Shown here one piece after another: positions 16,170 through 28,572 of a stretch of 64,000 bases of DNA; position 1 is the first letter of the stretch; every line of letters starts with the position of its first letter. The translations under genes were made by a program, and so were the position numbers. The DNA lies in contig JBAZZD010000001.1 in NCBI GenBank assembly GCA_041659005.1, positions 16,366-80,365 on the forward strand. The letters are read 5' to 3'. The notes beneath the pieces are model-generated. The model was not told the origin of the DNA and did no database searches. It saw only the letters and a list, made by a program, of their open reading frames with translations. Source of the DNA: Minisyncoccota bacterium (GTDB lineage: Bacteria > Patescibacteriota > Minisyncoccia > UBA6257 > GWB1-50-10).

Positions 16170-19100
16170 TTACGATTTTGGCGATATAAGTTCCTCACCT
16201 TCATCTAGGTGTCTTTTTATATCGTCAGCGATTGATCCAGTTAAAGAATCTACATAGTTTTTTATAACTCCTGGCTGGCACTTGGCGCTTATTTTTTCTA
16301 ATGCTTCTTTTTTATTTACTAATGCAGGTGGAGCTTGCCCTACTGTGGAACTATAACTACCACTTATCACCTGATGAGTAAAAACGTCTTTTGCTTCATC
16401 TAACACCCCTGCTTTTTCGGCCGCCATCAAAAAATTCAAAAACAAATCAATTGTATCTGCACCAAAAGAGATGCCAAAAAAAGCATTAGTAGCTATTTTC
16501 AAACTTTCTGCGTCTCCAGTCTTTATTTTGTCACCAATATAGTGCAATAAATAGTCGCCGTGTTCACTATCATGACCACCAATGCTTTTACCCAAAAATC
16601 CATCAATATCGAAAGAGAATAAAAGTTCCTCATTTCGCCAAAAATTAATTTTATCCATCAATTTTGCAAAATCATCATAGTTCTTAATTAGCTCCGTAGC
16701 CGAACGAAAACCGTCAAAGGGAATTGCATCAAATTTTTCAGCGCCTCTATTTTTAAAATATTCGCTCTGTTTTTTGAGACGATATTCAACCAATTCAATA
16801 AACTGATCCAAATCACCATTAAGTGCAAATTTTAATAGATCGTCTGTGTGATAATCTACCGAAGGGATATCTTTTATTATTTCAAATAATTTTTTACGAA
16901 TTTTATCTAAATCACCGCTTGGTAAATTCCAATTTACGGCATTGTGAACTAGAAAATCGAACATATCTAATACGTTGCTGTTGACTACACCACTTAAAGA
17001 CTGCTCAAGAATATTCACAACCTGGTTTTTTTCTGTTTGATCCCTGTCCTTAAAAATAAAATAAGAACGATGAAGAATAAGATTCTTAAGATAATCATCT
17101 GCTTTCTCAATAATCTGAGATATCCACGGCATAAATTCTGCCGTAGAAACATTATGTCGTATTATAAGGTCTAAAAGATTGTCTACAGCTTGGCGTTGAA
17201 GATTATTTAAATCTCCTAAGATTCGGCTAGCATATTTCATTATGTATTGTTTATCCCTATCGGAGGCAACTCTATAAATTCCGAGATGGAATCTATTAGG
17301 AACACTACTCAACAAATTTTCATCATCTACGATCTCAATAAATGATTGGTTATTGAATTTAGACCAAGTCTCAACTAAAGGAATAGTCTGCCATTGAGTA
17401 ATTCCCTTCACTTCATTCTCAAGTTCATATAAGTATTTAATAATCTCGGCTCTGCTTTTATATTTATTAGATAGCCTTTTTACTACCTCATCCAACTCTT
17501 CCTGTGGAAAATCATGAAGTCGAAAGTGATTATGAACAAGCCAAGACCATCTATCGCTCTCGGGGGCTCCAGACTCTATTTTTTTAAAATCGGAAATAAT
17601 CAAATCATGAGCCACAAAATATCGAAAAATAATGTATTCCATTGATCTCGGAAAATTTCTAAGTATGCCAGCAATTTTATCGCTCAAATCTAAATAAATA
17701 TTATTATTAGCCCAATATCTAACAAGAACGTCTTCGATAGAACTAAGCACCTCATGAGAACTTGTTTCGCTAATTAATTTCTCTAACCATTCAATAGCTT
17801 TTGTTTTATCGGATAGAATCCTCTTCCAAAAATCATCGCTTGTGGAGGTTGCCTCGTGACCGATGTCATCAACAATTTCCACGCCTATTTTTTTAATCTT
17901 GTCATTGGAGTGAAGAACCAACTTTTTCAGGACATCCATTCCTACATCTCTAAACTCATCCACTGGTTTTTTGTATATACCTTCATAACGCAGAATTCTT
18001 CTACCAAAAGTTATTTGGTTACCGTAACTTTCCCTATGTTCATGCGATCCAGAAAGGGATTCCAAGACACCATCGCTAGCAAGCCTTGCTTCGAGTTCGG
18101 TACAATTTCCTTTGCTAACCCAATCCAATAATTCCTTTAGTGATTGAGTAGCTGAAGCTATATTTACTTCAATGGGTGATATCGCTTGTTTTATAAGACT
18201 AGCGGGCTTGTAATTATCGTAAGTACCCTTAAGGTCTTTCTGGGCAAGATAAAGAATCAATTTTAATATTGCTTTTTCAAATCCAGGTACATGCAAAACA
18301 TGGTAAATGACTGGCCCATAAGTATCCCGATTTAGTCCATATGAATTCTGTGTATTCGATGAATTTACATAGGCATAAACCAAACTGATTGCCTCTTCAG
18401 GGGCTAAAAAAGCAATAGAAGCAGCGAGTTCTAATATTTTAGATTTAGATGAATCGGATGTCTCAGATGTTTCATTAATCCATTTTTGGAAAAGCTCCTT
18501 CACGGCTTCGTTCGCCGAATTCGTATCCTTATGTCTAGATGCAGCTGCCAAATTTGCTGTGAGTTGTTTAGGGTAGATAGATAACCAATTCTCAAACATT
18601 TCGTTCGCTAAATCTTTTCCATTTTCTTTATCTAATTCTACAGAAAGATAGATATCTCCTTTCATGTCAGGATTAAATCTTATCGAGGCGCCAACAACAC
18701 GAAGAATTTTTGCCTCAATAAGTTTATTCAGAGCTTCGTTTATTAAATCTACTTTTAATTCCAAAACAGTTGCCAACTTATCAAGCACATTATTTCCACG
18801 TTTTTCTTTTGAAAATGGGACAATAATAGATAGCTCTCTTAAAAAAGCCTTTGAGTTGCGTTCATCTAATACACCCTTAAGTGCGTTTACGGTTTCTTGG
18901 TCTAAATTATCTTTAATCTGCTTTTTAACTTGACTCGGGTTTAAGTCGCCACCCTTAATAAGTTTTCCTGTCGTGATTATTAAAAACAAATTTCCATTTA
19001 GTTCTTTTACGATTCTTTCTGGATGATTAATCTTTTTTGAATCAGCTGCTAGATTTAAAATTTCTATAAGTTCCTTCTCGGAAAGATGAGGTAACTCAAG

Positions 19101-20027
19101 TAAATTATAATTATCTACCCGCTGCGAATCCGCTAAATTCTTAACAATTTCTTTCCCAGAACTGCGACAAGACAAGACAACCTTTAACTTTCCAGGAGAA
19201 AATGTCTTAGTGTGAGCAATTAATTTTCTTGTATCGTCTAAATATCTTTCAGCGTCATCTAGAAATATCAAGGAATTCTTTTCGTGATCTAACTCATTGA
19301 TAGCTTCGTTAATATCTCTAATCCCAGGTCGACAAAACCATGTTTGAATACCTGGCCATAAAGAATCGCCATTTTTTCCAGATTCTACAATAAAATGTGT
19401 TTTTCCATAGCCACCTCCAGAATGAACAATAAGAAGATTAGATGTATTTTTTTGTATAAATTCCTTTAAAATATTTACTGATTCTTCTCGGCCGACAAAA
19501 ACTCCTTTAAGAAGCGGCTCTGATTCGGCGAATACATGAGCTGGAACGAATGTTGGTTCTTGGGGATCGCCAAAGTAGTTATGCCTTAATAGCGGATATT
19601 GAGTTGTTTTACTTTCTAAGTTGGCTCGCGGCCAAATAAATAACTGATCGACGAATTTTTTATTTTCGTTTAGCTTCTCAAGTTTACCTATATGATCGTC
19701 GGTGCCTATTCTCAAATCAGCATTTGTCGCAACCAGTAAAAAATTCACTTTATTCTTCTTTGCCTTTTCTAACTCCTTTTTAATCTCTCTCTGTAATTGT
19801 TTATAGGCTGCCTCAAGATTATGTTTGGTCCATTTCGCTTGGAAATTCCAAACACCCTTAAGACCCATATATGGTCCGTCATAACGCCCATCCCAACCGC
19901 CATCTGCTCCAATTTCCGGATTGCTTGAGAGAAAAGCGGGGTGGTTAATTTCTAATGCAAAAAGATCGTTTACTAAACGTTGGAAGTCTCTATCATTATT
20001 GATTTTATTCCAATCTAGGTTTTTCAT
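16170..20027 (-). CDS. Large defense-like protein: N-terminal Mrr-like restriction endonuclease domain + P-loop (STAND-like) NTPase + long helical-repeat C-terminus (Avs-like architecture)
   Basis: N-terminus GADGGWDGRYDG..FQAKW (Mrr_cat-like PD-(D/E)xK). Walker A LIVHSGGGYGKTHF. Walker B LIFLDDAERY. About 950 aa of helical repeats. Start overlaps the res stop (ATGA). Confidence 0.6.
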   Translation of the reverse strand: MKNLDWNKINNDRDFQRLVNDLFALEINHPAFLSSNPEIGADGGWDGRYDGPYMGLKGVWNFQAKWTKHNLEAAYKQLQREIKKELEKAKKNKVNFLLVATNADLRIGTDDHIGKLEKLNENKKFVDQLFIWPRANLESKTTQYPLLRHNYFGDPQEPTFVPAHVFAESEPLLKGVFVGREESVNILKEFIQKNTSNLLIVHSGGGYGKTHFIVESGKNGDSLWPGIQTWFCRPGIRDINEAINELDHEKNSLIFLDDAERYLDDTRKLIAHTKTFSPGKLKVVLSCRSSGKEIVKNLADSQRVDNYNLLELPHLSEKELIEILNLAADSKKINHPERIVKELNGNLFLIITTGKLIKGGDLNPSQVKKQIKDNLDQETVNALKGVLDERNSKAFLRELSIIVPFSKEKRGNNVLDKLATVLELKVDLINEALNKLIEAKILRVVGASIRFNPDMKGDIYLSVELDKENGKDLANEMFENWLSIYPKQLTANLAAASRHKDTNSANEAVKELFQKWINETSETSDSSKSKILELAASIAFLAPEEAISLVYAYVNSSNTQNSYGLNRDTYGPVIYHVLHVPGFEKAILKLILYLAQKDLKGTYDNYKPASLIKQAISPIEVNIASATQSLKELLDWVSKGNCTELEARLASDGVLESLSGSHEHRESYGNQITFGRRILRYEGIYKKPVDEFRDVGMDVLKKLVLHSNDKIKKIGVEIVDDIGHEATSTSDDFWKRILSDKTKAIEWLEKLISETSSHEVLSSIEDVLVRYWANNNIYLDLSDKIAGILRNFPRSMEYIIFRYFVAHDLIISDFKKIESGAPESDRWSWLVHNHFRLHDFPQEELDEVVKRLSNKYKSRAEIIKYLYELENEVKGITQWQTIPLVETWSKFNNQSFIEIVDDENLLSSVPNRFHLGIYRVASDRDKQYIMKYASRILGDLNNLQRQAVDNLLDLIIRHNVSTAEFMPWISQIIEKADDYLKNLILHRSYFIFKDRDQTEKNQVVNILEQSLSGVVNSNVLDMFDFLVHNAVNWNLPSGDLDKIRKKLFEIIKDIPSVDYHTDDLLKFALNGDLDQFIELVEYRLKKQSEYFKNRGAEKFDAIPFDGFRSATELIKNYDDFAKLMDKINFWRNEELLFSFDIDGFLGKSIGGHDSEHGDYLLHYIGDKIKTGDAESLKIATNAFFGISFGADTIDLFLNFLMAAEKAGVLDEAKDVFTHQVISGSYSSTVGQAPPALVNKKEALEKISAKCQPGVIKNYVDSLTGSIADDIKRHLDEGEELISPKS

Positions 20028-22387
20028 AATTCAAGTGCCATCCATTCTTTCCAATCATCCTGTTCGCATTTCTCCCAATCATAAATAGCCTTGTCGCTGA
20101 TGTGCCAGGCACGATTGCGTTCAATGACAATACCGCCGAAAAGCTTCTTGTTTTTCTGATCGGCAATGTATTTCTGCAAAGCTTCGGCTTTAGCTTTGGT
20201 GTAGGTTATACCGTCCCGATCACCGGAGTCTTTGACTTCAAACAAACCGATTCGACCGTCGGCAAACTTCACTAAATAGTCCGGGTAGAACGTATAGATG
20301 CCTCCGGCATATTCGTACTTTATGCCAAAGTAATCCTGCTTATTCTCTCCATTTTTCCACCACCAATCAATCTTAGAGGCGTTGTCGTTCAAGAATGACT
20401 CAAACTCACGTTCTGGCTTTGAGCGATCCACATTGAGATAACACGGATCATAAGCATACTTTTTCGCTTTTACGATTTCATCGGTGTACTCGTTATAAAA
20501 CTGCTCAGGCTGAAGCTCAAAAGGATATCGCTGTTCGCTTTCCTCGATACGCTCTCGGACTTCCTGCTCTTTAACAGCCTTATAGTTATCAATCGCCGTA
20601 GCCAGTACGTGCTCAAAGTAGCCACGATTTTTATCGTGCAAGAAAACCTTCTGCGCCATGAGCATATTTTCCTCACCCCAGCTCTTTGAGCCGAGCACCC
20701 CCTGAAACCAGAGATAGATGGCCGCTTTAACCGACGGGACCGAACGCTTCACGTTCTTGAAAGGTCCGAGATTGTTTTTAATGGTCTGCTCAAAAAAGAC
20801 CATGAGCTCGTCGGCCGCCACCTGAAGCTTGGCAAAACCTTCGGCACCGAGCTTACCCTCAAGCTCATCAAAACTTTTTATATCCAAATGCGTATCGGCG
20901 ATAATTTCTTGCTGATACTTCTTGATATTGAGATCAACGCCCTTGCTCTCAACTTTCTTGGCGTTCTCCGCTGGTTTATTTTTGCGTGATACGCCAAAGT
21001 ATTTATTGGCTGTTTCTTCAAAGACATCGTGGAAGCTGGATGTGACATCGCCATAATCCGCTCGAGCTTTGTAGTACGACTCTATCTTGAGCGATTTGTA
21101 ATCCTTTGTGCGTCCAGCTCGCAAATGCTTGATGATGTTCGGATTGTATTCTTCCTTTTTAACTTCGATTGATTTGAGATTGGTATAGATATAACCACGA
21201 TTGAGCATTTCGTGTCCGTAGTGTCGCTGTTCCGGCATACGCAAAATACGGCCAACAGTTTGGATTTCAAAGACGATATTATGTGTCTCTCGAAACTTCA
21301 CAAGAATGTGTGCTCGAGGACAATCCCAGCCGGTATCAATGGCTTGCTTGAAAATAAGAAATTCAATCTCGTTATCCGGCTCGGCGATCCAATCAATAAG
21401 CTCTGACTTCTGTTCGGCCAGCCAGATAGCCAGCTTGCCGTTGCCGTGCCCATCTTTACGTTCAACGATACTCTTACCAGCCAGAAATTTCTTCACTGCT
21501 TCGATCTTTTGGTCACCAGCTTCTGCGGTAGGAATCTGTACCAGAACCAAAGGATTGATATGTGATCCTTCTTTTTCAAATACCTTTTTAAGTTCTAGAC
21601 GCTTACGATAGGCGGCCTCGAGTACAGCTGATTGTGAGTCATCTTCGGAAGCGGCGATTTTCTCTATATCCTCGTTGATGATGATTTCTTTCTTAATCAT
21701 ACCTTCGTCAATCACATCTTTCGGCTCGACTATGACATAGCCAGCACCGCCTCGAGCCAGTTCCTGGGTAAAACCGAGCTCCTGCTGTGGCCGACGGGGA
21801 GTAGCGGACATTTCGATCACAATATCTGCACCGATAAGGTCGCGGAGCTCATTTGCCCGGGCTGTGTCAGCACTTACGTGGCTCTCATCAATAATAAGAA
21901 TGATTTTACGTTGCTCTCTGGTCTTCTCGAGCACATCCCGAAAATTTAACTTCTCGCCGTCTTTCATGACCAAGTTTTTCCAATCTCCGGATTCACGTTC
22001 CTTGCTTCGAAGTTTTTCCCAGTTGGCGACCACGACTTCGTTTTGCACGATCCGTTCACGCCCACCGCTAAAGGCATTCTCGACAGATGTAACTCGAGGG
22101 AAACCAGCGAATACCTTTTCGAGCGAATGTTTGCTCTGTAAATGAAGCTCACCCTTACCGATACTCATCCAAACAAAGCAAAAATCTTCTTTGGGGAGTT
22201 CTTTGATAATACCCTCGATGTACTTAGCCATCATGATGGTCTTACCCGAACCAGTGGGAGATTGAAAGACGCACACTTCGCCCGGGCCGTCATAACCCAA
22301 AAGCTTGACCGTTGTTTCGATCAGCTGATTAACGGCTTTTTCTTGATAAGGTTTAAGATCAATATTCATAAATTTGTTTATATACAT
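20024..22387 (-). CDS. res: Type III restriction enzyme Res subunit (SF2 helicase + endonuclease)
   Basis: Walker A FQSPTGSGKT and IIDESH (DEAH-like) box. Overlaps mod by 29 nt. Confidence 0.75.
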   Translation of the reverse strand: MYINKFMNIDLKPYQEKAVNQLIETTVKLLGYDGPGEVCVFQSPTGSGKTIMMAKYIEGIIKELPKEDFCFVWMSIGKGELHLQSKHSLEKVFAGFPRVTSVENAFSGGRERIVQNEVVVANWEKLRSKERESGDWKNLVMKDGEKLNFRDVLEKTREQRKIILIIDESHVSADTARANELRDLIGADIVIEMSATPRRPQQELGFTQELARGGAGYVIVEPKDVIDEGMIKKEIIINEDIEKIAASEDDSQSAVLEAAYRKRLELKKVFEKEGSHINPLVLVQIPTAEAGDQKIEAVKKFLAGKSIVERKDGHGNGKLAIWLAEQKSELIDWIAEPDNEIEFLIFKQAIDTGWDCPRAHILVKFRETHNIVFEIQTVGRILRMPEQRHYGHEMLNRGYIYTNLKSIEVKKEEYNPNIIKHLRAGRTKDYKSLKIESYYKARADYGDVTSSFHDVFEETANKYFGVSRKNKPAENAKKVESKGVDLNIKKYQQEIIADTHLDIKSFDELEGKLGAEGFAKLQVAADELMVFFEQTIKNNLGPFKNVKRSVPSVKAAIYLWFQGVLGSKSWGEENMLMAQKVFLHDKNRGYFEHVLATAIDNYKAVKEQEVRERIEESEQRYPFELQPEQFYNEYTDEIVKAKKYAYDPCYLNVDRSKPEREFESFLNDNASKIDWWWKNGENKQDYFGIKYEYAGGIYTFYPDYLVKFADGRIGLFEVKDSGDRDGITYTKAKAEALQKYIADQKNKKLFGGIVIERNRAWHISDKAIYDWEKCEQDDWKEWMALEL

Positions 22388-24089
22388 CTAATATCTTTTG
22401 AGGAATGGGTTCGAGCGTAACACCATGCCAGTTAGCGAACTCTGTTTTTGAAAGACCTGTGGCATCGAGCGTGAAGCAGTAAAGTATTTTCTCACCATCA
22501 ATTTCCTTTAGCTCTTTTTTCAAGGCGGGCAATGATTTACGGTCCAAAGAATAGTAAACAGCCAGCGTTTTATTGCCTTGTTGGAATATACGATAGTGAT
22601 CGGTCTTTTTTACTTCATCAAACACGCCTTCTCGCAAACAAAGCATCTCGGTGCATTCCTGTGTAATCCGTATCTTAAAGTCATCGCCGTTGGCGTTCTT
22701 TTTTACGAATTTTGTCTTGAAATATTTAAGAGAGCCACCCGTACCCGGCACTTTTACATTTTCAGAATTTTTATATCCTCCAGATACATTTTTCAGTCGA
22801 GGATAGCAAACTTCCGTACAAATATTGCCCTCGTCATTAGTACAAAGTATAAATTCTCTTTTTCCACCGTCCTGATTAAGTTCAAGAACTGCGTGACCCG
22901 TAGTACCTGAACCGGCAAAAAAATCGAGAACAATCCCGTCTTTTTTGATGGAGAGATTGATACATTTTTTAATTAGCTCAACTGATTTAGGGAAGTCAAA
23001 AAGATGCTGATGAAACATACTTTTCAAAACCTCTTTCCCGTTTTCGTTGTTTATGTTTTTATCTAACCATAAAGCTTTTTCTTTGGTTGTAGCTGTTTCT
23101 CCATTCTGCTTTATAAGACGATCTTTTCTATAGACTCGCCAAGCACCTGTTGAAACCTTTTTACCGACAAGATCAGTTATTTCCTTGGCGACTTTTTCTT
23201 TACCCCATGTCCAGCAACCGTCTTCGTTTTTAGAGTTGCGTGGGTAGACCTCAACATAGCCTTTCTTGTTAGTTAAAGAAACTACACCATTTTTTAAATC
23301 AACAAAAAGTGGGTAATAAAGATTTGGTCGGTTCTTTCGATTAAAGACAGGGTTACGATTTCTTAATTCCAAGAGACGATATTTCCCTTTCTCGTCCTCT
23401 TTATCATATTCGGCCAGCATTTCCTCACCTTTAGTAGGTTCTATAATTTGTGCAATGTTAAAATCCTTGGCGAAAACTAAAATATATTCAAAAGTTTTTG
23501 CGAAATGTTTATCAAGCGTTCTGCCTCGCGGATTTAGTTGGACAACAAGTTGAGCAATAAAGTTTTTCTCTCCAAAAATATCATCACATAATAGTTTAAG
23601 GTGCGAGACTTCATTGTCGTCTATGCTAATGAAAATAACCCCGGAGTCCTTAAGTAGGTTTTTTGCGAGCTGAATTCTCTTTGCCATAAAAGAGAGCCAT
23701 TTACTGTGCCGATATGCATCTTCTCTGTCGACGTAATTGTCATTATATTTAAAGTCCTTGTTGCCCGTGTTATACGGCGGATCAATATAGATCACATCAA
23801 CCTTACCTTGATGCGTAAAATTCAAAACTGAGAGAGCATGATAATTATCTCCCTCGATCAAAATATTAACCGGCCTGGACGGGTCCTTGTCAGTAATTTC
23901 CTTAGAACCGATTTCTTTTAGTACCGGTAAAGCATTCTCTGCATCTTTCTCAAATTGTTCTTTGACTTTTTCCTCATCCCAAATAAGCCCGTACTTCTTT
24001 CGGGACTCCAACTTCTCAACAATTTTGACTAACTCTTCTTTGCTGAGTTGGGAGTAGTCTTTTCCATTTTTGGCGATTTCCTTTTGCAT
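22359..24089 (-). CDS. mod: Type III R-M DNA methyltransferase Mod subunit (N6A/N4C beta-class)
   Basis: Motif IV IYIDPPYNTGN and motif I VLDFFAGSGTTGHAV. Confidence 0.8.
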   Translation of the reverse strand: MQKEIAKNGKDYSQLSKEELVKIVEKLESRKKYGLIWDEEKVKEQFEKDAENALPVLKEIGSKEITDKDPSRPVNILIEGDNYHALSVLNFTHQGKVDVIYIDPPYNTGNKDFKYNDNYVDREDAYRHSKWLSFMAKRIQLAKNLLKDSGVIFISIDDNEVSHLKLLCDDIFGEKNFIAQLVVQLNPRGRTLDKHFAKTFEYILVFAKDFNIAQIIEPTKGEEMLAEYDKEDEKGKYRLLELRNRNPVFNRKNRPNLYYPLFVDLKNGVVSLTNKKGYVEVYPRNSKNEDGCWTWGKEKVAKEITDLVGKKVSTGAWRVYRKDRLIKQNGETATTKEKALWLDKNINNENGKEVLKSMFHQHLFDFPKSVELIKKCINLSIKKDGIVLDFFAGSGTTGHAVLELNQDGGKREFILCTNDEGNICTEVCYPRLKNVSGGYKNSENVKVPGTGGSLKYFKTKFVKKNANGDDFKIRITQECTEMLCLREGVFDEVKKTDHYRIFQQGNKTLAVYYSLDRKSLPALKKELKEIDGEKILYCFTLDATGLSKTEFANWHGVTLEPIPQKILDVYKQIYEY

Positions 24090-24287: not shown

Positions 24288-24400
24288 AAAAATATATTAG
24301 TCGTTGATACCATTTTACCGCTTCTGCTTTTCGTTGTCAAAAACGCCGTCTTTTGTCATAATGAGCTTAACAACAAAAAGAGCACACTGTTTTAACAATA

Positions 24401-24470
24401 AGGATATCACTATATCACTCTGTTGATATAGTAAGTGGCTTTACTATCTCAGTTGATTGATATAGTAAAT
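24401..24470. repeat. Iteron/operator-like cluster of short direct and inverted repeats
   Basis: GATATCACTATATCAC. Two copies of TTGATATAGTAA and its inverse TTACTATCTCA within 70 bp. Confidence 0.4.
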
Positions 24471-24618
24471 TTAGTGAATGCCAATGCAACAAAAGTGTAT
24501 TACTGTCGAAAAGTGAACTGGAAAGGACTTTAAACACCCTTTCCAGTTAAAAAACGAAGCTGAACTCCATTAACTTCTTGTCAGCTTTTGTCAGATCAGC
24601 TGTCCACAGAAATGGGTG

Positions 24619-24648
24619 TTGACGGTCCCTAGAGAAATCCGCTAAAAT
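24619..24648 (+). promoter_or_regulatory. Sigma70-like promoter candidate
   Basis: TTGACG (24619-24624), 18-bp spacer, TAAAAT (24643-24648). Confidence 0.35.
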
Positions 24649-24654
24649 ATACAT

Positions 24655-24790
24655 ATCAGAGTTAGTTGGTCTGACGGCGACTGAATTCTCAGTCTAAACG
24701 TGACGGGACTACGACTACTGTTATCAGCACTGCCATTTGGTGTGTGCATTTGATGACAAGAGTCGTGGTCCCGTTTTTTGTTTTCCAGCT
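24655..24790 (+). ncRNA. Candidate small RNA (promoter to strong intrinsic terminator, no ORF)
   Basis: Internal hairpin GACTGAattcTCAGTC. Terminal 14-bp stem ACGGGACTACGACT/AGTCGTGGTCCCGT (24703-24774) followed by TTTTTTGTTTT. Confidence 0.3.
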
Positions 24791-24895
24791 CGCTCTGCTG
24801 ATAAATAATTTCCCTCTGAGGCTAAGGTGCCTCGATTAGACCGACGAATTTGATTAGACGGATAAAGGCTAGCTCCCGGCAGGGGCCAGCCTTTT

Positions 24896-25096
24896 ATGTT
24901 GCCCCAAGAAGCAATCCAAGAATTTAAAACACTGTACGAAAAACGCTACGGCGTAAAGCTCTCCGATGAGGAGGCTGCTTTGCGCGCGAATAATCTTTTC
25001 AAACTTTACAAGATCACCTACATGGGTGAGCCAAACATCGACGACTTCAAAGAAAAAGTAGTGAAAAGCCATGACCTCAACACCAACCACAATTAG
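24896..25096 (+). CDS. Hypothetical small protein
   Basis: 66-aa ORF in the GC-rich segment. No family recognised. Confidence 0.3.
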   Translation: MLPQEAIQEFKTLYEKRYGVKLSDEEAALRANNLFKLYKITYMGEPNIDDFKEKVVKSHDLNTNHN

Positions 25097-25379
25097 CGAA
25101 ATACAGTTCTACCCGGTTAAACCCCAGGACGGCCTCCTTGGGTTTGTTTCGTTTGTCCTGGACAGCAAATTCTGGATGGGATCGGTGGCTGTTTTCTCCA
25201 GGCGCGAGGGCGGATACCGGCTTGTGTATCCAACACGCAAAGTTGCCGGACAAAACATTAATATTTTTCATCCAATTAACCACGAAGTCGGCATCCTGGT
25301 CGAAAAAGCCGTCAGTGAAAAAGTAGCTGAAATATTTAGTGAATCATATGAACAAACCGAACCGGACAACACGTGGTAA
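25071..25379 (+). CDS. SpoVG-family protein
   Basis: ISEIQFYPV..DGLLGFVSFVLD..F.....V....EGGYRLVYPTRK....INIFHPIN..VG..VEKAV aligns with the conserved SpoVG core (..HPIN..). Confidence 0.6.
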   Translation: MTSTPTTISEIQFYPVKPQDGLLGFVSFVLDSKFWMGSVAVFSRREGGYRLVYPTRKVAGQNINIFHPINHEVGILVEKAVSEKVAEIFSESYEQTEPDNTW

Positions 25380-25779: not shown

Positions 25780-26063
25780 AGCACTTAGTAATAAAGATTG
25801 AGTAAGAAAGAAACAATAAGAGAGCTTAAATAAAGCGAGATGGCTCGTCAAAAATTAAAAAATAGGGGTTGGGCAAAGCTTGGGTGAAACTTGGGCAGAT
25901 TTTCGAGAAGATAACCAAATAAAAGGCGAACAAAATCGGTACAAGAATAGATACCCAACCTGTAAATAAAGGCGTAAAATGTAAGTAATTAAGTGTTTGA
26001 CTTCTTTCGACCTTAGGACCATGTTGTGCTTAGGTCGAGAAAATAATTAATGAAAACAATCAT

Positions 26064-26927
26064 ATGACAAACAAAGCCAAAATAACCACCGTAATCGCCC
26101 TTGTAGCGGTCTTTGGTGCAGGATTCGGGGTTTATTACCTTCTAGGAAACAAAGCACCGCGCGGAGGCACGAATACAGACGTAGCCTCAATTACGACATT
26201 CGAGCAATGCTCTGAGGCCGGTTACCCGATCGTTAAGCATTATCCAGATCAGTGCAAAACTCCGGACGGTAGAATTTTTGTAAACGACAATCCTCCAAGC
26301 CAAACAGAGCTTGTGAAAGCCGAGCAAACAATTCGAACGTTCATGGGAGAGCTGAATCTGGAGTTGCAATACACCGGACAAAATAATCATCCCACGAATT
26401 TTGCCGTCTTAAGCAACGTTAAACAGAACGACGGCGGATTTACGGCCGACAATCCCGAAGAATGGGACCGGCCGGTCTACATCTTCCAGCAAACAGATTA
26501 CATCAACGACCGCTGCGAAGTTTATCAATATCAGGTAACGCAAAAAACGAATCAGGTCGTGGAAATCGGAATTGTCTATCCGATAGAACGCAACGCTACC
26601 ACGCCAGGTAATTGCCCTGGTAACGGATCGCTGGAAACTCCGCTGAAGACCAAAGCTGAAATCGAACAAATTGCCTTCGCTTATTTCGGCAGAGACCCGG
26701 AACACACGAAATTCATGCTTCGCTCCGACATCCAGCTTAAATACATCTCAAGCAAACCAGGCGCAGCAAACCCGGCTGCCAATGAATGGCAATGGGAAGA
26801 CAAAAACGCCTCACTGCCGGACGGACTGACCGGCGATCCGTGGCAGCACCCGATTGCCAGAATCATAATATCAAGTGGCGGTAAACTGATTTACTATCTG
26901 AACACCACCGACTTATTCCAAAACTAA
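26064..26927 (+). CDS. Secreted/membrane-anchored hypothetical protein
   Basis: N-terminal TM/signal (ITTVIALVAVFGAGFGVYYLL). GC-rich. No family recognised. Confidence 0.5.
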   Translation: MTNKAKITTVIALVAVFGAGFGVYYLLGNKAPRGGTNTDVASITTFEQCSEAGYPIVKHYPDQCKTPDGRIFVNDNPPSQTELVKAEQTIRTFMGELNLELQYTGQNNHPTNFAVLSNVKQNDGGFTADNPEEWDRPVYIFQQTDYINDRCEVYQYQVTQKTNQVVEIGIVYPIERNATTPGNCPGNGSLETPLKTKAEIEQIAFAYFGRDPEHTKFMLRSDIQLKYISSKPGAANPAANEWQWEDKNASLPDGLTGDPWQHPIARIIISSGGKLIYYLNTTDLFQN

Positions 26928-26928
26928 T

Positions 26929-28512
26929 ATGAACCAGGAAGTACAACCAAAACTCAAGTACTTCCTCTACGCTCGAAAATCTTCAGAACAAGAAGACAGA
27001 CAGGTCCTTTCGATTGACTCGCAAAAGAGCGAATTGGAAGCACTCGCAAAACGGGAAAAGCTTCAGATTGTGGAGCGTCTCGAAGAATCCTATTCAGCCA
27101 AAGCACCAGGCCGGGAGATCTTTAACGCGATGATAAAACGAATAGAGAAAGGTGAAGCGGAGGGCATTGTTGCGTGGCATCCGAACCGGCTCTCACGTAA
27201 TTCCGTGGACACCGGCTACCTGGTCTACCTTATGGACCAGAATAAACTCCTCGAAATCCGAACACCCGGACAGGCATTTAAGAATTCGCCAAATGATAAA
27301 TTTTTACTAAACCTCCTGTGCAGCCAAGCCAAACTCGAAAACGACAACAAGGGCGTGGACGTAAAACGTGGACTCAGGCGCAAAGTAGAGATGGGCTGGC
27401 ATCCGGGCGTTGCTCCAATCGGCTATATGAATACGCCGGACAAAATGAAAGGTTTTAAGACGATCCGCAAAGACCCGAAGATGTTTCCGATAATCCGGAA
27501 AATGTTCGATATGATTTTGAGCGGTACATACACCGCGCCACGTGTCCATGAAATTGCCGTCAATCAATGGGGCTTAAAGAAACTCGCCCGAAGCGGTTTC
27601 TACCGCGTGCTTTACAATTCCTTTTACTACAGTTGGTTTGAGTGGCCGGCCGGATCGGGCAACTGGCACAAGGGCAAGCACGAACCGATGATCACGCGCG
27701 ATGAATATGACCGCGTTCAGGCACTCCTTGGCCGTGGCAGCAAGCCAAAACCAGAAGCACATTCATTCGCATATACCGGAATGATCCGATGTGGTGAATG
27801 CGGATGCATGGTAACGGCCGAGAATAAAATAAAGAAAAATAAGAACGGCAATGTCCACCACTACACTTATTACCACTGCACGAAACGCAAAGGTCCATGC
27901 GCTCAGAAATGCATAGAAGTGAAAGAAATGGAAAAGCAGATTACCGGCACGCTTGCTAAAGTCCGGCCACCGGAAGAATTCCACGGCTGGGCAATGAAGT
28001 GGCTGCAGAACGAGAACGGTCGCGAAGCGGCCGACCGCAATGCGATCCTCTCTAATCAGCAGAAAAATTACGAAGCATGTGTGCGGAAACTGGACGCGCT
28101 TATAGATATGCGTGCAGCTGGGGAAATTAGTGAAGAAGAATTTGCACGAAAAAAATCAACGATCAATCAGGAGAAAGCAAAACTGCATGAGCTTTTGAAT
28201 GATACTGACGCGCGGGTGGACAGCTGGCTGCAGACGGCCGATAACGTGATCAAGTTCGCAACAGACGCCAAAGAAGCATTTACGGAACGGGGCCAGCACG
28301 CGAGAAAAGTCATTTTATCCGCCTTAGGTTCGAACCTCCTCCTAAAGGACAAAAACATAAGCATTGACACGGATTCTGCGCTTCTGCCGATGATTCTCGT
28401 CTCAAATTCGTCCGCAAAAAATTCTGGCACGTTCGAACCTCCGAATGAAGGCTCTAATAAAGAGAAAAGCCACGCTTTTGACGTGGCAAATCCCATGTGG
28501 CTCCCCGGGTAG
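26929..28512 (+). CDS. Large serine recombinase (phage-integrase type)
   Basis: Resolvase N-terminal domain YARKSSEQEDRQVLSIDSQ with catalytic Ser. Recombinase domain. C-terminal zinc ribbon CGECGCMV..YYHCTKRKGPCAQKC. Last ~14 nt overlap tRNA-Asn. Confidence 0.85.
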   Translation: MNQEVQPKLKYFLYARKSSEQEDRQVLSIDSQKSELEALAKREKLQIVERLEESYSAKAPGREIFNAMIKRIEKGEAEGIVAWHPNRLSRNSVDTGYLVYLMDQNKLLEIRTPGQAFKNSPNDKFLLNLLCSQAKLENDNKGVDVKRGLRRKVEMGWHPGVAPIGYMNTPDKMKGFKTIRKDPKMFPIIRKMFDMILSGTYTAPRVHEIAVNQWGLKKLARSGFYRVLYNSFYYSWFEWPAGSGNWHKGKHEPMITRDEYDRVQALLGRGSKPKPEAHSFAYTGMIRCGECGCMVTAENKIKKNKNGNVHHYTYYHCTKRKGPCAQKCIEVKEMEKQITGTLAKVRPPEEFHGWAMKWLQNENGREAADRNAILSNQQKNYEACVRKLDALIDMRAAGEISEEEFARKKSTINQEKAKLHELLNDTDARVDSWLQTADNVIKFATDAKEAFTERGQHARKVILSALGSNLLLKDKNISIDTDSALLPMILVSNSSAKNSGTFEPPNEGSNKEKSHAFDVANPMWLPG

Positions 28513-28572
28513 GACTCGAACCTACAACCATCGCGTTAACAGCGCGCCGCTCAACCATTGAGCTACCGGGGA
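28498..28572 (-). tRNA. tRNA-Asn (GTT)
   Basis: Hand-folded cloverleaf. Acceptor TCCCCGG/CCGGGGA. D-arm GCTC-AATGGTT-GAGC. Anticodon loop CTGTTAA. T-arm GTAGG-TTCGAGT-CCTAC. Encoded CCA. Confidence 0.8.

Follow-up and report, generated by a model that had tools for sequence, protein, structure and literature searches.

A conserved structured RNA with a candidate role as transcription attenuator ahead of the recombinase operon in small integrative elements of Patescibacteria

Does a promoter that is followed after little more than a hundred nucleotides (nt) by a terminator, with no gene between the two, produce a free regulatory RNA, or does it belong to the leader of the genes behind it? This question is raised by positions 24619-24790 of a 64,000-nt stretch of contig JBAZZD010000001.1 from a Minisyncoccota bacterium (assembly GCA_041659005.1), which was analyzed over its full length and is referred to as the window. 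The initial annotation had read these positions, situated in what it took to be a mobile-element control region, as a small RNA (sRNA), for example an antisense or copy-control RNA. The reading that we favor, with moderate confidence, is that the unit constitutes the structured 5' leader, a cis-acting transcription attenuator, of the core operon that small integrative elements of Patescibacteria share. The parts of the unit and of the leader on which this reading turns are listed by their window positions.

24619-24648, + strand: promoter with the -35 hexamer TTGACG and the -10 hexamer TAAAAT, predicted to start transcription at about 24655
24663-24678, + strand: invariant 5' motif (family consensus AGUUNGYCUGACGGC), a block of near-invariant alignment columns that follows the variable 5' end
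24679-24694, + strand: hairpin P1, GACUGA-AUUC-UCAGUC, the stem of which is kept in four sequence versions
24695-24702, + strand: linker between P1 and P2 (consensus CUAAACGNG), conserved in the alignments, which would contribute internal-loop residues and a 2-bp helix to the antiterminator form
24699-24717, + strand: proposed 3' strand of the antiterminator, overlapping the 5' arm of P2
24703-24784, + strand: P2, a long predicted intrinsic terminator composed of an outer stem, an inner stem, a variable tip and a U-run
24811-24895, + strand: second leader domain, for which two alternative folds are predicted and whose conservation matches or exceeds that of the upstream RNA

The promoter that had been proposed (TTGACG at 24619-24624, an 18-nt spacer and TAAAAT at 24643-24648 on the + strand) was found as described and represents a sigma-70-type candidate with a score of 10/12. 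In a single sequence a match of this kind is at chance level, with 17 sites of equal quality as compared to 15.9 expected from shuffles (10 kb); the two hexamers are conserved in position among the relatives described below. The internal hairpin, P1, was likewise present, although its distance had been given loosely as about 55 nt downstream and is in fact 31 nt after the -10 hexamer. The 14-bp stem corresponds to the outer stem of P2, formed by ACGGGACTACGACT (24703-24716) and AGTCGTGGTCCCGT (24761-24774) including one U.G pair, but the approximately 44 nt between its arms are not the open loop that had been assumed: they are themselves a helix, the inner stem (24720-24727 with 24750-24757), with a small tip that is variable. 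The T-run reported after the stem was recovered as TTTTTTGTTTT at 24774-24784, directly 3' of P2, and the predicted terminated transcript has a length of approximately 125-130 nt. P2 was missed by the terminator scan, because the tool used permits loops of only 3-8 nt. As had been stated, no sizeable open reading frame (ORF) lies in the unit, which is overlapped only by mechanical frames of 35 amino acids (aa) on the - strand and 31 aa on the + strand. Folding of the + strand gave -60 kcal/mol (z = -7.4), a value that none of 200 shuffles equaled, while the - strand reached -45 kcal/mol (z = -5.2). Judged by these predictions together with the comparative evidence, the unit from promoter to terminator is a genuine structured RNA element.

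Relatives were obtained by an exact look-up of the SpoVG-like protein encoded downstream of the unit, which yielded four metagenome contigs, and by scans of genome and metagenome contigs, which yielded 160 further loci (designated L with a number); the homologue search places the element family in Patescibacteria. With window positions 24610-24899 as the query, nhmmer returned 62 related loci, all of them matching on the operon strand, and nearly all alignments terminated at the ATG of a 66-aa ORF. Some 60 Patescibacteria loci, drawn from genomes and metagenomes, carry the unit on the + strand, always approximately 100 nt upstream of this ORF. In the alignment of the four metagenome contigs from the look-up the RNA is almost invariant, and in L004 the homology to the window begins exactly at the -35 hexamer. 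The promoter hexamers (conserved form TTGAC at -35 and TAnnAT at -10) occupy a fixed place and match at 10-11 of 12 positions in 42 of the 50 distinct loci, with a spacer whose sequence varies freely. P1 is found in four versions (GACUG/CAGUC, GUUCC/GGAAC, GUCCG/CGGAC and GCCUG/CAGGC), with double-sided changes in five of its six pairs and a centre that ranges from 2 to 8 nt; in L001, which carries P1 type B and is otherwise near-identical to the window (type A), GTTCCGATCAATCGGAAC takes the place of the entire hairpin and keeps the stem. P2 is conserved except for its tip, its 20 pairs being formed in 99-100% of the alignment cells with many G.U pairs, and a run of at least four U directly follows it in every aligned locus.

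The RNAalifold consensus comprises 29 pairs, which are formed in 99% of the cells of 41 distinct sequences as compared to 27-57% when the partners were slid, and nine of these 29 pairs exhibit compensatory double-sided changes. About 13% of the paired cells are G.U and would become A.C mismatches if read on the other strand, and this abundance of G.U pairs therefore fixes the RNA strand as +. A covariance model found one + strand copy per locus at 83-136 bits and at most 48 bits on the - strand, with a single copy in the 64-kb window. By the measure of these alignments the RNA is conserved, structured and encoded on the + strand. Rfam at gathering thresholds returned only two tRNAs for the whole window and no family for the RNA, and at E values of up to 10 nothing in 24300-25100 overlapped positions 24650-24790; the nearby sub-threshold matches (LhrC, mir-7 and IS605-orfB-I) scored 14-20 bits against gathering thresholds of 52-110. 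The Rfam comparison that the initial annotation had suggested therefore leaves the RNA with no fitting family in Rfam 15. Comparison by eye with the consensus features of ANTAR, TRAP, T-box and nut boxA elements gave no fit. The region had no blastn match in the phage and plasmid collections, no copy was present in viral contigs according to an exact-pattern scan and a SpoVG-based scan, and searches of the literature, as far as it is searchable, returned no description of the RNA or the element family. It appears to represent an undescribed RNA family, for which classical attenuation is the most likely mechanism.

This mechanism is suggested by a second fold of the same RNA. With the alignment truncated upstream of the P2 3' strand, the consensus fold paired the invariant 5' motif with the P2 5' arm, joining 24663-24667 with 24713-24717, 24669-24672 with 24706-24709 and 24675-24676 with 24699-24700 and placing P1 at the tip. 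The resulting 11 antiterminator pairs are formed in 98.4% of the cells as compared to 24-55% for slid partners, and two of them covary, one as C-G (23), U-A (12) and U.G (6) with no C.A, the other as G.U (16), A-U (10) and U-A (9). Antiterminator and terminator are mutually exclusive because both use the P2 5' arm. In the variants L025, L026 and L110 the 5' domain is unrelated in sequence, yet GACAGAAG...AGCCC pairs with GGGCU...CUUCUGUU of the terminator 5' arm. Pairing with the P2 5' arm would explain why the 5' motif is invariant, and P1 can be swapped wholesale without a correlated change in the core proteins because it would merely cap the antiterminator helix. The predicted layout is that of a classical antiterminator competing with a terminator. 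A further complementarity was observed between UUAUCAGCA (24721-24729, the inner 5' strand of P2) and UGCUGAUAA (24796-24804, after the U-run), which match perfectly in the window; by eye it is missing in the aligned type-B relatives, and this pairing may be another alternative fold of read-through transcripts or due to chance.

The RNA is tied to what follows it. In all 62 loci it co-occurs in fixed order with the approximately 100-nt downstream leader, which ends at the ATG of the 66-aa ORF, and both always precede the genes for the 66-aa, SpoVG-like and 146-aa proteins, plus the recombinase gene wherever the contig extends far enough. Within the leader domain, RNAalifold predicts a long-range helix of 24811-24831 with 24867-24885 (95% paired, double-sided changes in six pairs) and, as the alternative, a local hairpin GGCUAGCUCC/GGGGCCAGCC at 24867-24891 (85% paired), which is followed by UUUU at 24892-24895 and then by the AUG and represents the minimum-energy fold in the window. 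The relatives' alignment contains no conserved promoter in the interval from the terminator to the ATG, the best matches being mostly 6-7/12 with inconsistent hexamers, and in L095, L101, L020, L106, L018 and L102 the U-run leads straight into the conserved leader without a spacer. A separate operon promoter after the terminator appears unlikely, as the promoter-like match is not conserved beyond the closest relatives. The initial annotation had named as a refuting outcome that the region is the 5' untranslated region of the downstream ORF, reached by read-through. This alternative is the one favored by the fixed linkage to the leader, by the lack of a conserved second promoter and by the conserved pairing that excludes the terminator. 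In the variable tip of the leader domain (24834-24862) two direct repeats of GATTAGAC(C/G)GA, 18 nt apart (24834 and 24852), were noted, which may represent a protein-binding motif; GATTAGA also occurs in the P2 tip of the L025 and L026 variants.

A promoter followed by a predicted intrinsic terminator, both situated before the first gene, and a conserved pairing that is mutually exclusive with this terminator together make up the arrangement of an attenuator. According to this reading, RNA polymerase would start at the near-consensus promoter, at about 24655, and in the emerging RNA the 5' motif (24663-24676) would pair with the first half of P2 (24699-24717) to form a weak antiterminator capped by P1. 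If this antiterminator is not stabilized, P2 would form, polymerase would stop at the U-run (about 24779-24784) and an RNA of approximately 125-130 nt would be released. If it is held, polymerase would pass through the second structured domain (24811-24895), and the read-through transcripts would encode the 66-aa protein, the SpoVG-like protein, a Rep-like winged helix-turn-helix (wHTH) protein, a membrane protein and a large serine recombinase.

Several points weigh against the attenuator. That termination and read-through occur, and that the read-through is regulated, we infer from sequence alone. The antiterminator is weak, with -15 to -26 kcal/mol including P1 (z -0.6 to -3.3) as compared to -60 kcal/mol for the terminator form; given this difference termination should be the default and read-through should need a stabilizing factor. 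Its pairs were counted on the same alignment from which they had been derived, its covariation comprises two pairs in few independent lineages, another fold has the lowest energy in the L024-type sequence, and the antiterminator was not predicted in the four short variants L012, L014, L016 and L092. The sequence of the P2 stem is conserved far beyond the need of a mere terminator, which hints at an additional role. Furthermore, the window's close relatives carry a 9/12 promoter match (TTTCCA-16-AATAAT) just after the U-run, an AT-rich box is found at a fairly constant 84-98 nt before the ATG, and a weak second promoter could conceivably lie after the terminator.

The genes that read-through would express are the following.

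24896-25096, + strand: 66-aa ORF (MLPQEAIQEFK...RANNLFKLYKITY), conserved, first gene of the operon
25071-25379, + strand: SpoVG-like gene, 102 aa, PF04026 at 28.1 bits
25339-25779, + strand: Rep-like wHTH gene, 146 aa, weak match to phrog_270
26064-26927, + strand: membrane protein gene, 287 aa
26929-28512, + strand: large serine recombinase gene, 527 aa

The 66-aa protein has no family in Pfam, PHROG or NCBIfam, and all of its homologues are annotated as hypothetical; AlphaFold2 models it as a two-helix hairpin (mean predicted local distance difference test, pLDDT, of 80), for which a Foldseek search of the PDB returned nothing below E = 1. The 102-aa protein scored 28.1 bits against Pfam PF04026 with a cut-off of 29.6 (E = 2.3e-6, profile positions 2-79 of 82) and is named SpoVG-like only; its database homologues carry PF04026. 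The 146-aa protein matches weakly to the N-terminal DNA-binding part of phage replication initiation proteins (phrog_270, E = 2.7e-6). Overlaps of 26 nt between the 66-aa ORF and the SpoVG-like gene and of 41 nt between the latter and the longest 146-aa frame suggest translational coupling of the three small genes. The 146-aa gene is a mosaic hot spot, in which L002 is 70% identical to the window while the flanking genes are approximately 100% identical, and the 284-nt gap that follows it (25780-26063, before the membrane protein gene) exhibits about 50 differences per 100 nt among near-identical elements and might hold a second promoter or another RNA. L001 and L002 differ in both P1 and the 146-aa protein, and the idea taken from this pair, that P1 is the specific site of the wHTH protein, was rejected: the protein of the window (P1 type A) is 99% identical to that of L001 (type B) and 70% identical to that of L002 (type A), and no other core region co-varies with the P1 type.

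The effector of the proposed attenuator could be a small molecule, a host factor or a protein, such as the SpoVG-like nucleic-acid-binding protein that the operon itself encodes. Since RNA binding has been reported for SpoVG proteins (Burke and Portnoy 2016, as cited in PMC13123087), the SpoVG-like protein appears to be a reasonable candidate, a small-molecule ligand or a host factor being equally possible. Much more tentatively, the RNA may be a novel sensing element (an orphan riboswitch, or else the target of an RNA-binding antiterminator of a new kind, possibly the SpoVG-like or the 66-aa protein), which would couple a signal from the host, the symbiont or the element to recombinase expression and, together with the second switchable domain that abuts the start codon, decide on excision and movement of the island.

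The antisense or copy-control function in trans that the initial annotation had put forward found no support, as nothing is encoded on the opposite strand, no conserved antisense promoter is present and no complementary target was detected. Specifically, neither the RNA nor the leader contains a conserved promoter on the - strand, and no gene lies on the strand opposite the RNA. The invariant 5' motif has no complementary site within the 64-kb window, which is the part of the host genome that was searched. Duplexes of the RNA with the translation start regions of the core genes had z values of about 0 and were no better than those of shuffled RNA, so that the search for a complementary target in the adjacent ORFs, which the initial annotation had suggested, ended in pairing at shuffle level. 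A column-pair scan detected no conserved inter-domain helix of at least 5 bp between RNA and leader beyond those already known. Kissing-loop or antisense pairing of the RNA with its own leader was rejected, the matches seen by eye being only 5-6 nt long and not kept across the P1 types, as was a leader pairing GUUGGUCU/AGACCGAC from a single-sequence fold, whose complement is lacking in the type-B leader and which did not appear as a conserved helix in the scan. Counter-transcript attenuation of the pT181/pIP501 type was rejected as well for want of a conserved - strand promoter.

A promoter and a terminator that are predicted to give a discrete small transcript are also what an sRNA would have, and the unit might be an independent trans-acting sRNA of approximately 125-130 nt that titrates a protein, for example the SpoVG-like one, or pairs elsewhere, with the operon being transcribed from its own promoter at the AT-rich box. 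Strong promoter and very strong terminator would suit such an RNA, as would the conservation of the P2 and unpaired-motif sequence beyond the needs of termination, the TTTCCA-16-AATAAT match (9/12) after the U-run in the window and its close relatives, the -10-like hexamers that recur 84-98 nt before the ATG and the RNA binding reported for SpoVG. We nevertheless regard it as doubtful: the downstream promoter-like match is confined to the closest relatives and several loci have no room for one, the RNA was never found apart from the leader and the operon, and the searches just described returned no 5'-motif complement in the 64-kb window, only shuffle-level pairing with the core-gene start regions and no conserved RNA-leader helix, while the conservation of the 5' motif is already accounted for by the antiterminator pairing. 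Improbable in our view is processive or promoter-proximal antitermination of the kind known from lambda PR'/6S RNA with Q, from N with nut sites or from the HK022 put RNA, according to which the short transcript would be a by-product and a factor or RNA would make polymerase ignore both P2 and the hairpin before the AUG, with the linear motif and P1 serving as a nut-like loading site. Two terminator-like hairpins in tandem before the first gene, a conserved linear motif followed by a lineage-specific hairpin, and the terminators that guard the same operon in distant elements (see below) are compatible with it. However, the P1 type is independent of the core proteins, type A in the window and type B in L001 being accompanied by proteins that are 98-100% identical; the scan of proteins revealed none that resembles N, Q or LoaP; and such a model does not require the 5' motif to be complementary to the terminator arm.

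The copy-control idea of the initial annotation returns in the form of a replication-control or primer RNA for the excised circle, which we consider very improbable. The phrog_270 match of the 146-aa protein (E = 2.7e-6) and the direct repeats, those of the iteron-like GATTAGAC in the leader and others before the terminator in distant elements, could be read in its favor, but the Rep match is weak and covers the DNA-binding domain only, and known copy-control RNAs differ from the present one, which has neither a conserved antisense promoter nor target complementarity. Still less credence is given to an element that acts as DNA rather than RNA, such as operator palindromes, an origin of transfer (oriT), a single-strand origin or a recombination site. 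P1 comes close to a perfect palindrome at the DNA level and contains very few G.U pairs, and GTCAG-type motifs are situated both upstream of the promoter and at +15; against this stand the approximately 13% of G.U cells in P2 and the other helices, which are strand-specific, the strongly strand-asymmetric covariance-model scores, the positional conservation of promoter and U-run, and a P1 centre of 2 to 8 nt, a range that a dimeric DNA binder would not tolerate.

The attenuator reading can be placed next to known systems. In BglG/SacY/LicT-type ribonucleic antiterminator (RAT) leaders the 5' arm of the intrinsic terminator shares sequence with a short antiterminator hairpin whose internal loops are conserved. 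There, as proposed here, the terminator is the default and a bound factor would stabilize the weaker alternative helix. Unlike these leaders, the present one has no RAT consensus, no Rfam match and no CAT-PRD protein among the neighboring proteins scanned, its terminator is unusually long and conserved in sequence, and its setting is the recombinase operon of a mobile element instead of sugar utilization. In 'ON' riboswitches such as the adenine riboswitch of the pbuE leader, conserved junction nucleotides and an alternative helix likewise compete with an intrinsic terminator, and conserved internal-loop nucleotides are present here as well; in contrast, the genes downstream are non-metabolic, a ligand cannot be deduced, no Rfam family fits at E values of up to 10, the putative sensing helix is small and P1 is exchangeable.

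In biological role the present leader resembles the leader terminators of lambda PR'-tR' (6S RNA), pCF10 prgQ/IRS1 and the Tn916 orf12 attenuator, in which a strong promoter gives rise to a short terminated leader and read-through expresses late, transfer or recombination genes. These systems employ Q at the promoter, the Anti-Q counter-transcript or ribosome-mediated attenuation, whereas here the pairing of the 5' motif with the terminator arm would be used and neither an antisense promoter nor a leader peptide ORF is present. ColE1 RNAI, R1 CopA, pIP501 RNAIII and pT181 RNAI/II are copy-control RNAs antisense to the leader they control. They share with the present RNA a small size, a structured fold, a promoter and terminator of their own and a location in the control region of a mobile replicon, and in pT181 and pIP501 the target leader carries an attenuator terminator as well; the present RNA, however, is on the sense strand and has no conserved antisense partner or complementarity. 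The P4 CI and P1/P7 c4 RNAs are small RNAs from the 5' part of the operon that they control, as the present RNA would be, but they need complementary sites further downstream, of which no conserved ones were found here, and the present RNA does not match the c4 family of Rfam.

The surroundings bear out the claim that the unit lies in the control region of a mobile element, as a large serine recombinase, an excisionase-family helix-turn-helix (HTH) protein and an island beside a tRNA gene were all identified. The island is GC-rich (0.44-0.48 as compared to 0.33-0.38 in the flanks), spans approximately 8.5 kb and is located beside tRNA-Asn. The last 15 nt of the recombinase ORF (28498-28512) overlap the 3' end of this tRNA gene (28498-28572, - strand), which is consistent with an island integrated at or in the tRNA gene. 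To the left of the RNA, on the - strand, are a 63-aa excisionase-family gene (HTH_17) and the cargo, which consists of Type III restriction and methylase genes. Cargo differs among near-identical cores: in the window (16170-24089) the Type III res/mod genes are accompanied by a translationally coupled ORF of 1285 aa, L001-L003 have RadC-methyltransferase genes, and L004 has an N6_N4 methylase in the same direction as the RNA. The element family is a small defence-cargo shuttle in Patescibacteria.

Between the HTH_17 gene and the promoter of the RNA, palindromic operator-like units were observed at 24409-24432 and 24440-24469 (ACTATATCA-N6-TGATATAGT and TTTACTATCTCA-N6-TGATATAGTAAA), and a leftward near-consensus promoter, TTGACA-17-TAAAAT, at 24340-24312; together they look like the switch region of divergent genes. 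A perfect 11-bp hairpin, AACTGGAAAGG/CCTTTCCAGTT at 24516-24548, flanked by an A-run and, at its opposite end, by CACTTTTC, recurs in L001-L003 and would be terminator-like for leftward transcription. Closer to the promoter of the RNA one further feature is shared with the relatives.

24577-24595, + strand: direct repeats TTGTCAG-N4-TTGTCAG with an 11-bp period, conserved in most related loci (MAFFT alignment)

These repeats, which are separated from the -35 hexamer by a conserved TCCACAG just upstream of it, are probably the DNA-binding site of a regulator, and where another sequence has taken the place of the upstream flank (L004, L006 and L085) they are missing. Their inverted core, CTGAC, is found inside the invariant 5' motif (24670-24675, about +15), and these nucleotides could act as a DNA operator as well.

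In distant elements the genes for the 66-aa protein, the SpoVG-like protein and the recombinase are retained at 36-61% identity, and a profile match to the RNA is lacking. These elements carry direct repeats followed by an intrinsic terminator, the U-run of which often abuts the same start codon (for example CCCCTTTTTATGTTGCC); the repeats differ from TTGTCAG, have a spacing of 11-12 bp and occupy an equivalent position. In L030-L059 and L120-L159 an ORF on the same strand ending in ...FYR* was noted approximately 330 nt upstream of the 66-aa homologue, the order being this ORF, two or three direct repeats, the terminator hairpin and the 66-aa gene; its product could regulate the operon by acting on either the repeats or the terminator. 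A terminator guarding the operon looks like a design feature of the wider element family, to which the present family would add a dedicated promoter and a structured switch ahead of the operon.

Patescibacteria, ultra-small bacteria also known as the Candidate Phyla Radiation (CPR), are mostly uncultured, and very little is known of gene regulation and DNA movement in these organisms. The element described here, which is supported by covariation, stands at the start of the recombinase operon in small islands that form a widespread family and bring defence cargo, and it provides a concrete and testable control point for island mobility. It represents a candidate RNA family without a counterpart in Rfam 15 and a possible RNA partner for the SpoVG-like proteins of mobile elements. 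Should the effector prove to be a small molecule or a new class of protein, a new system would be added to those known to act by attenuation.

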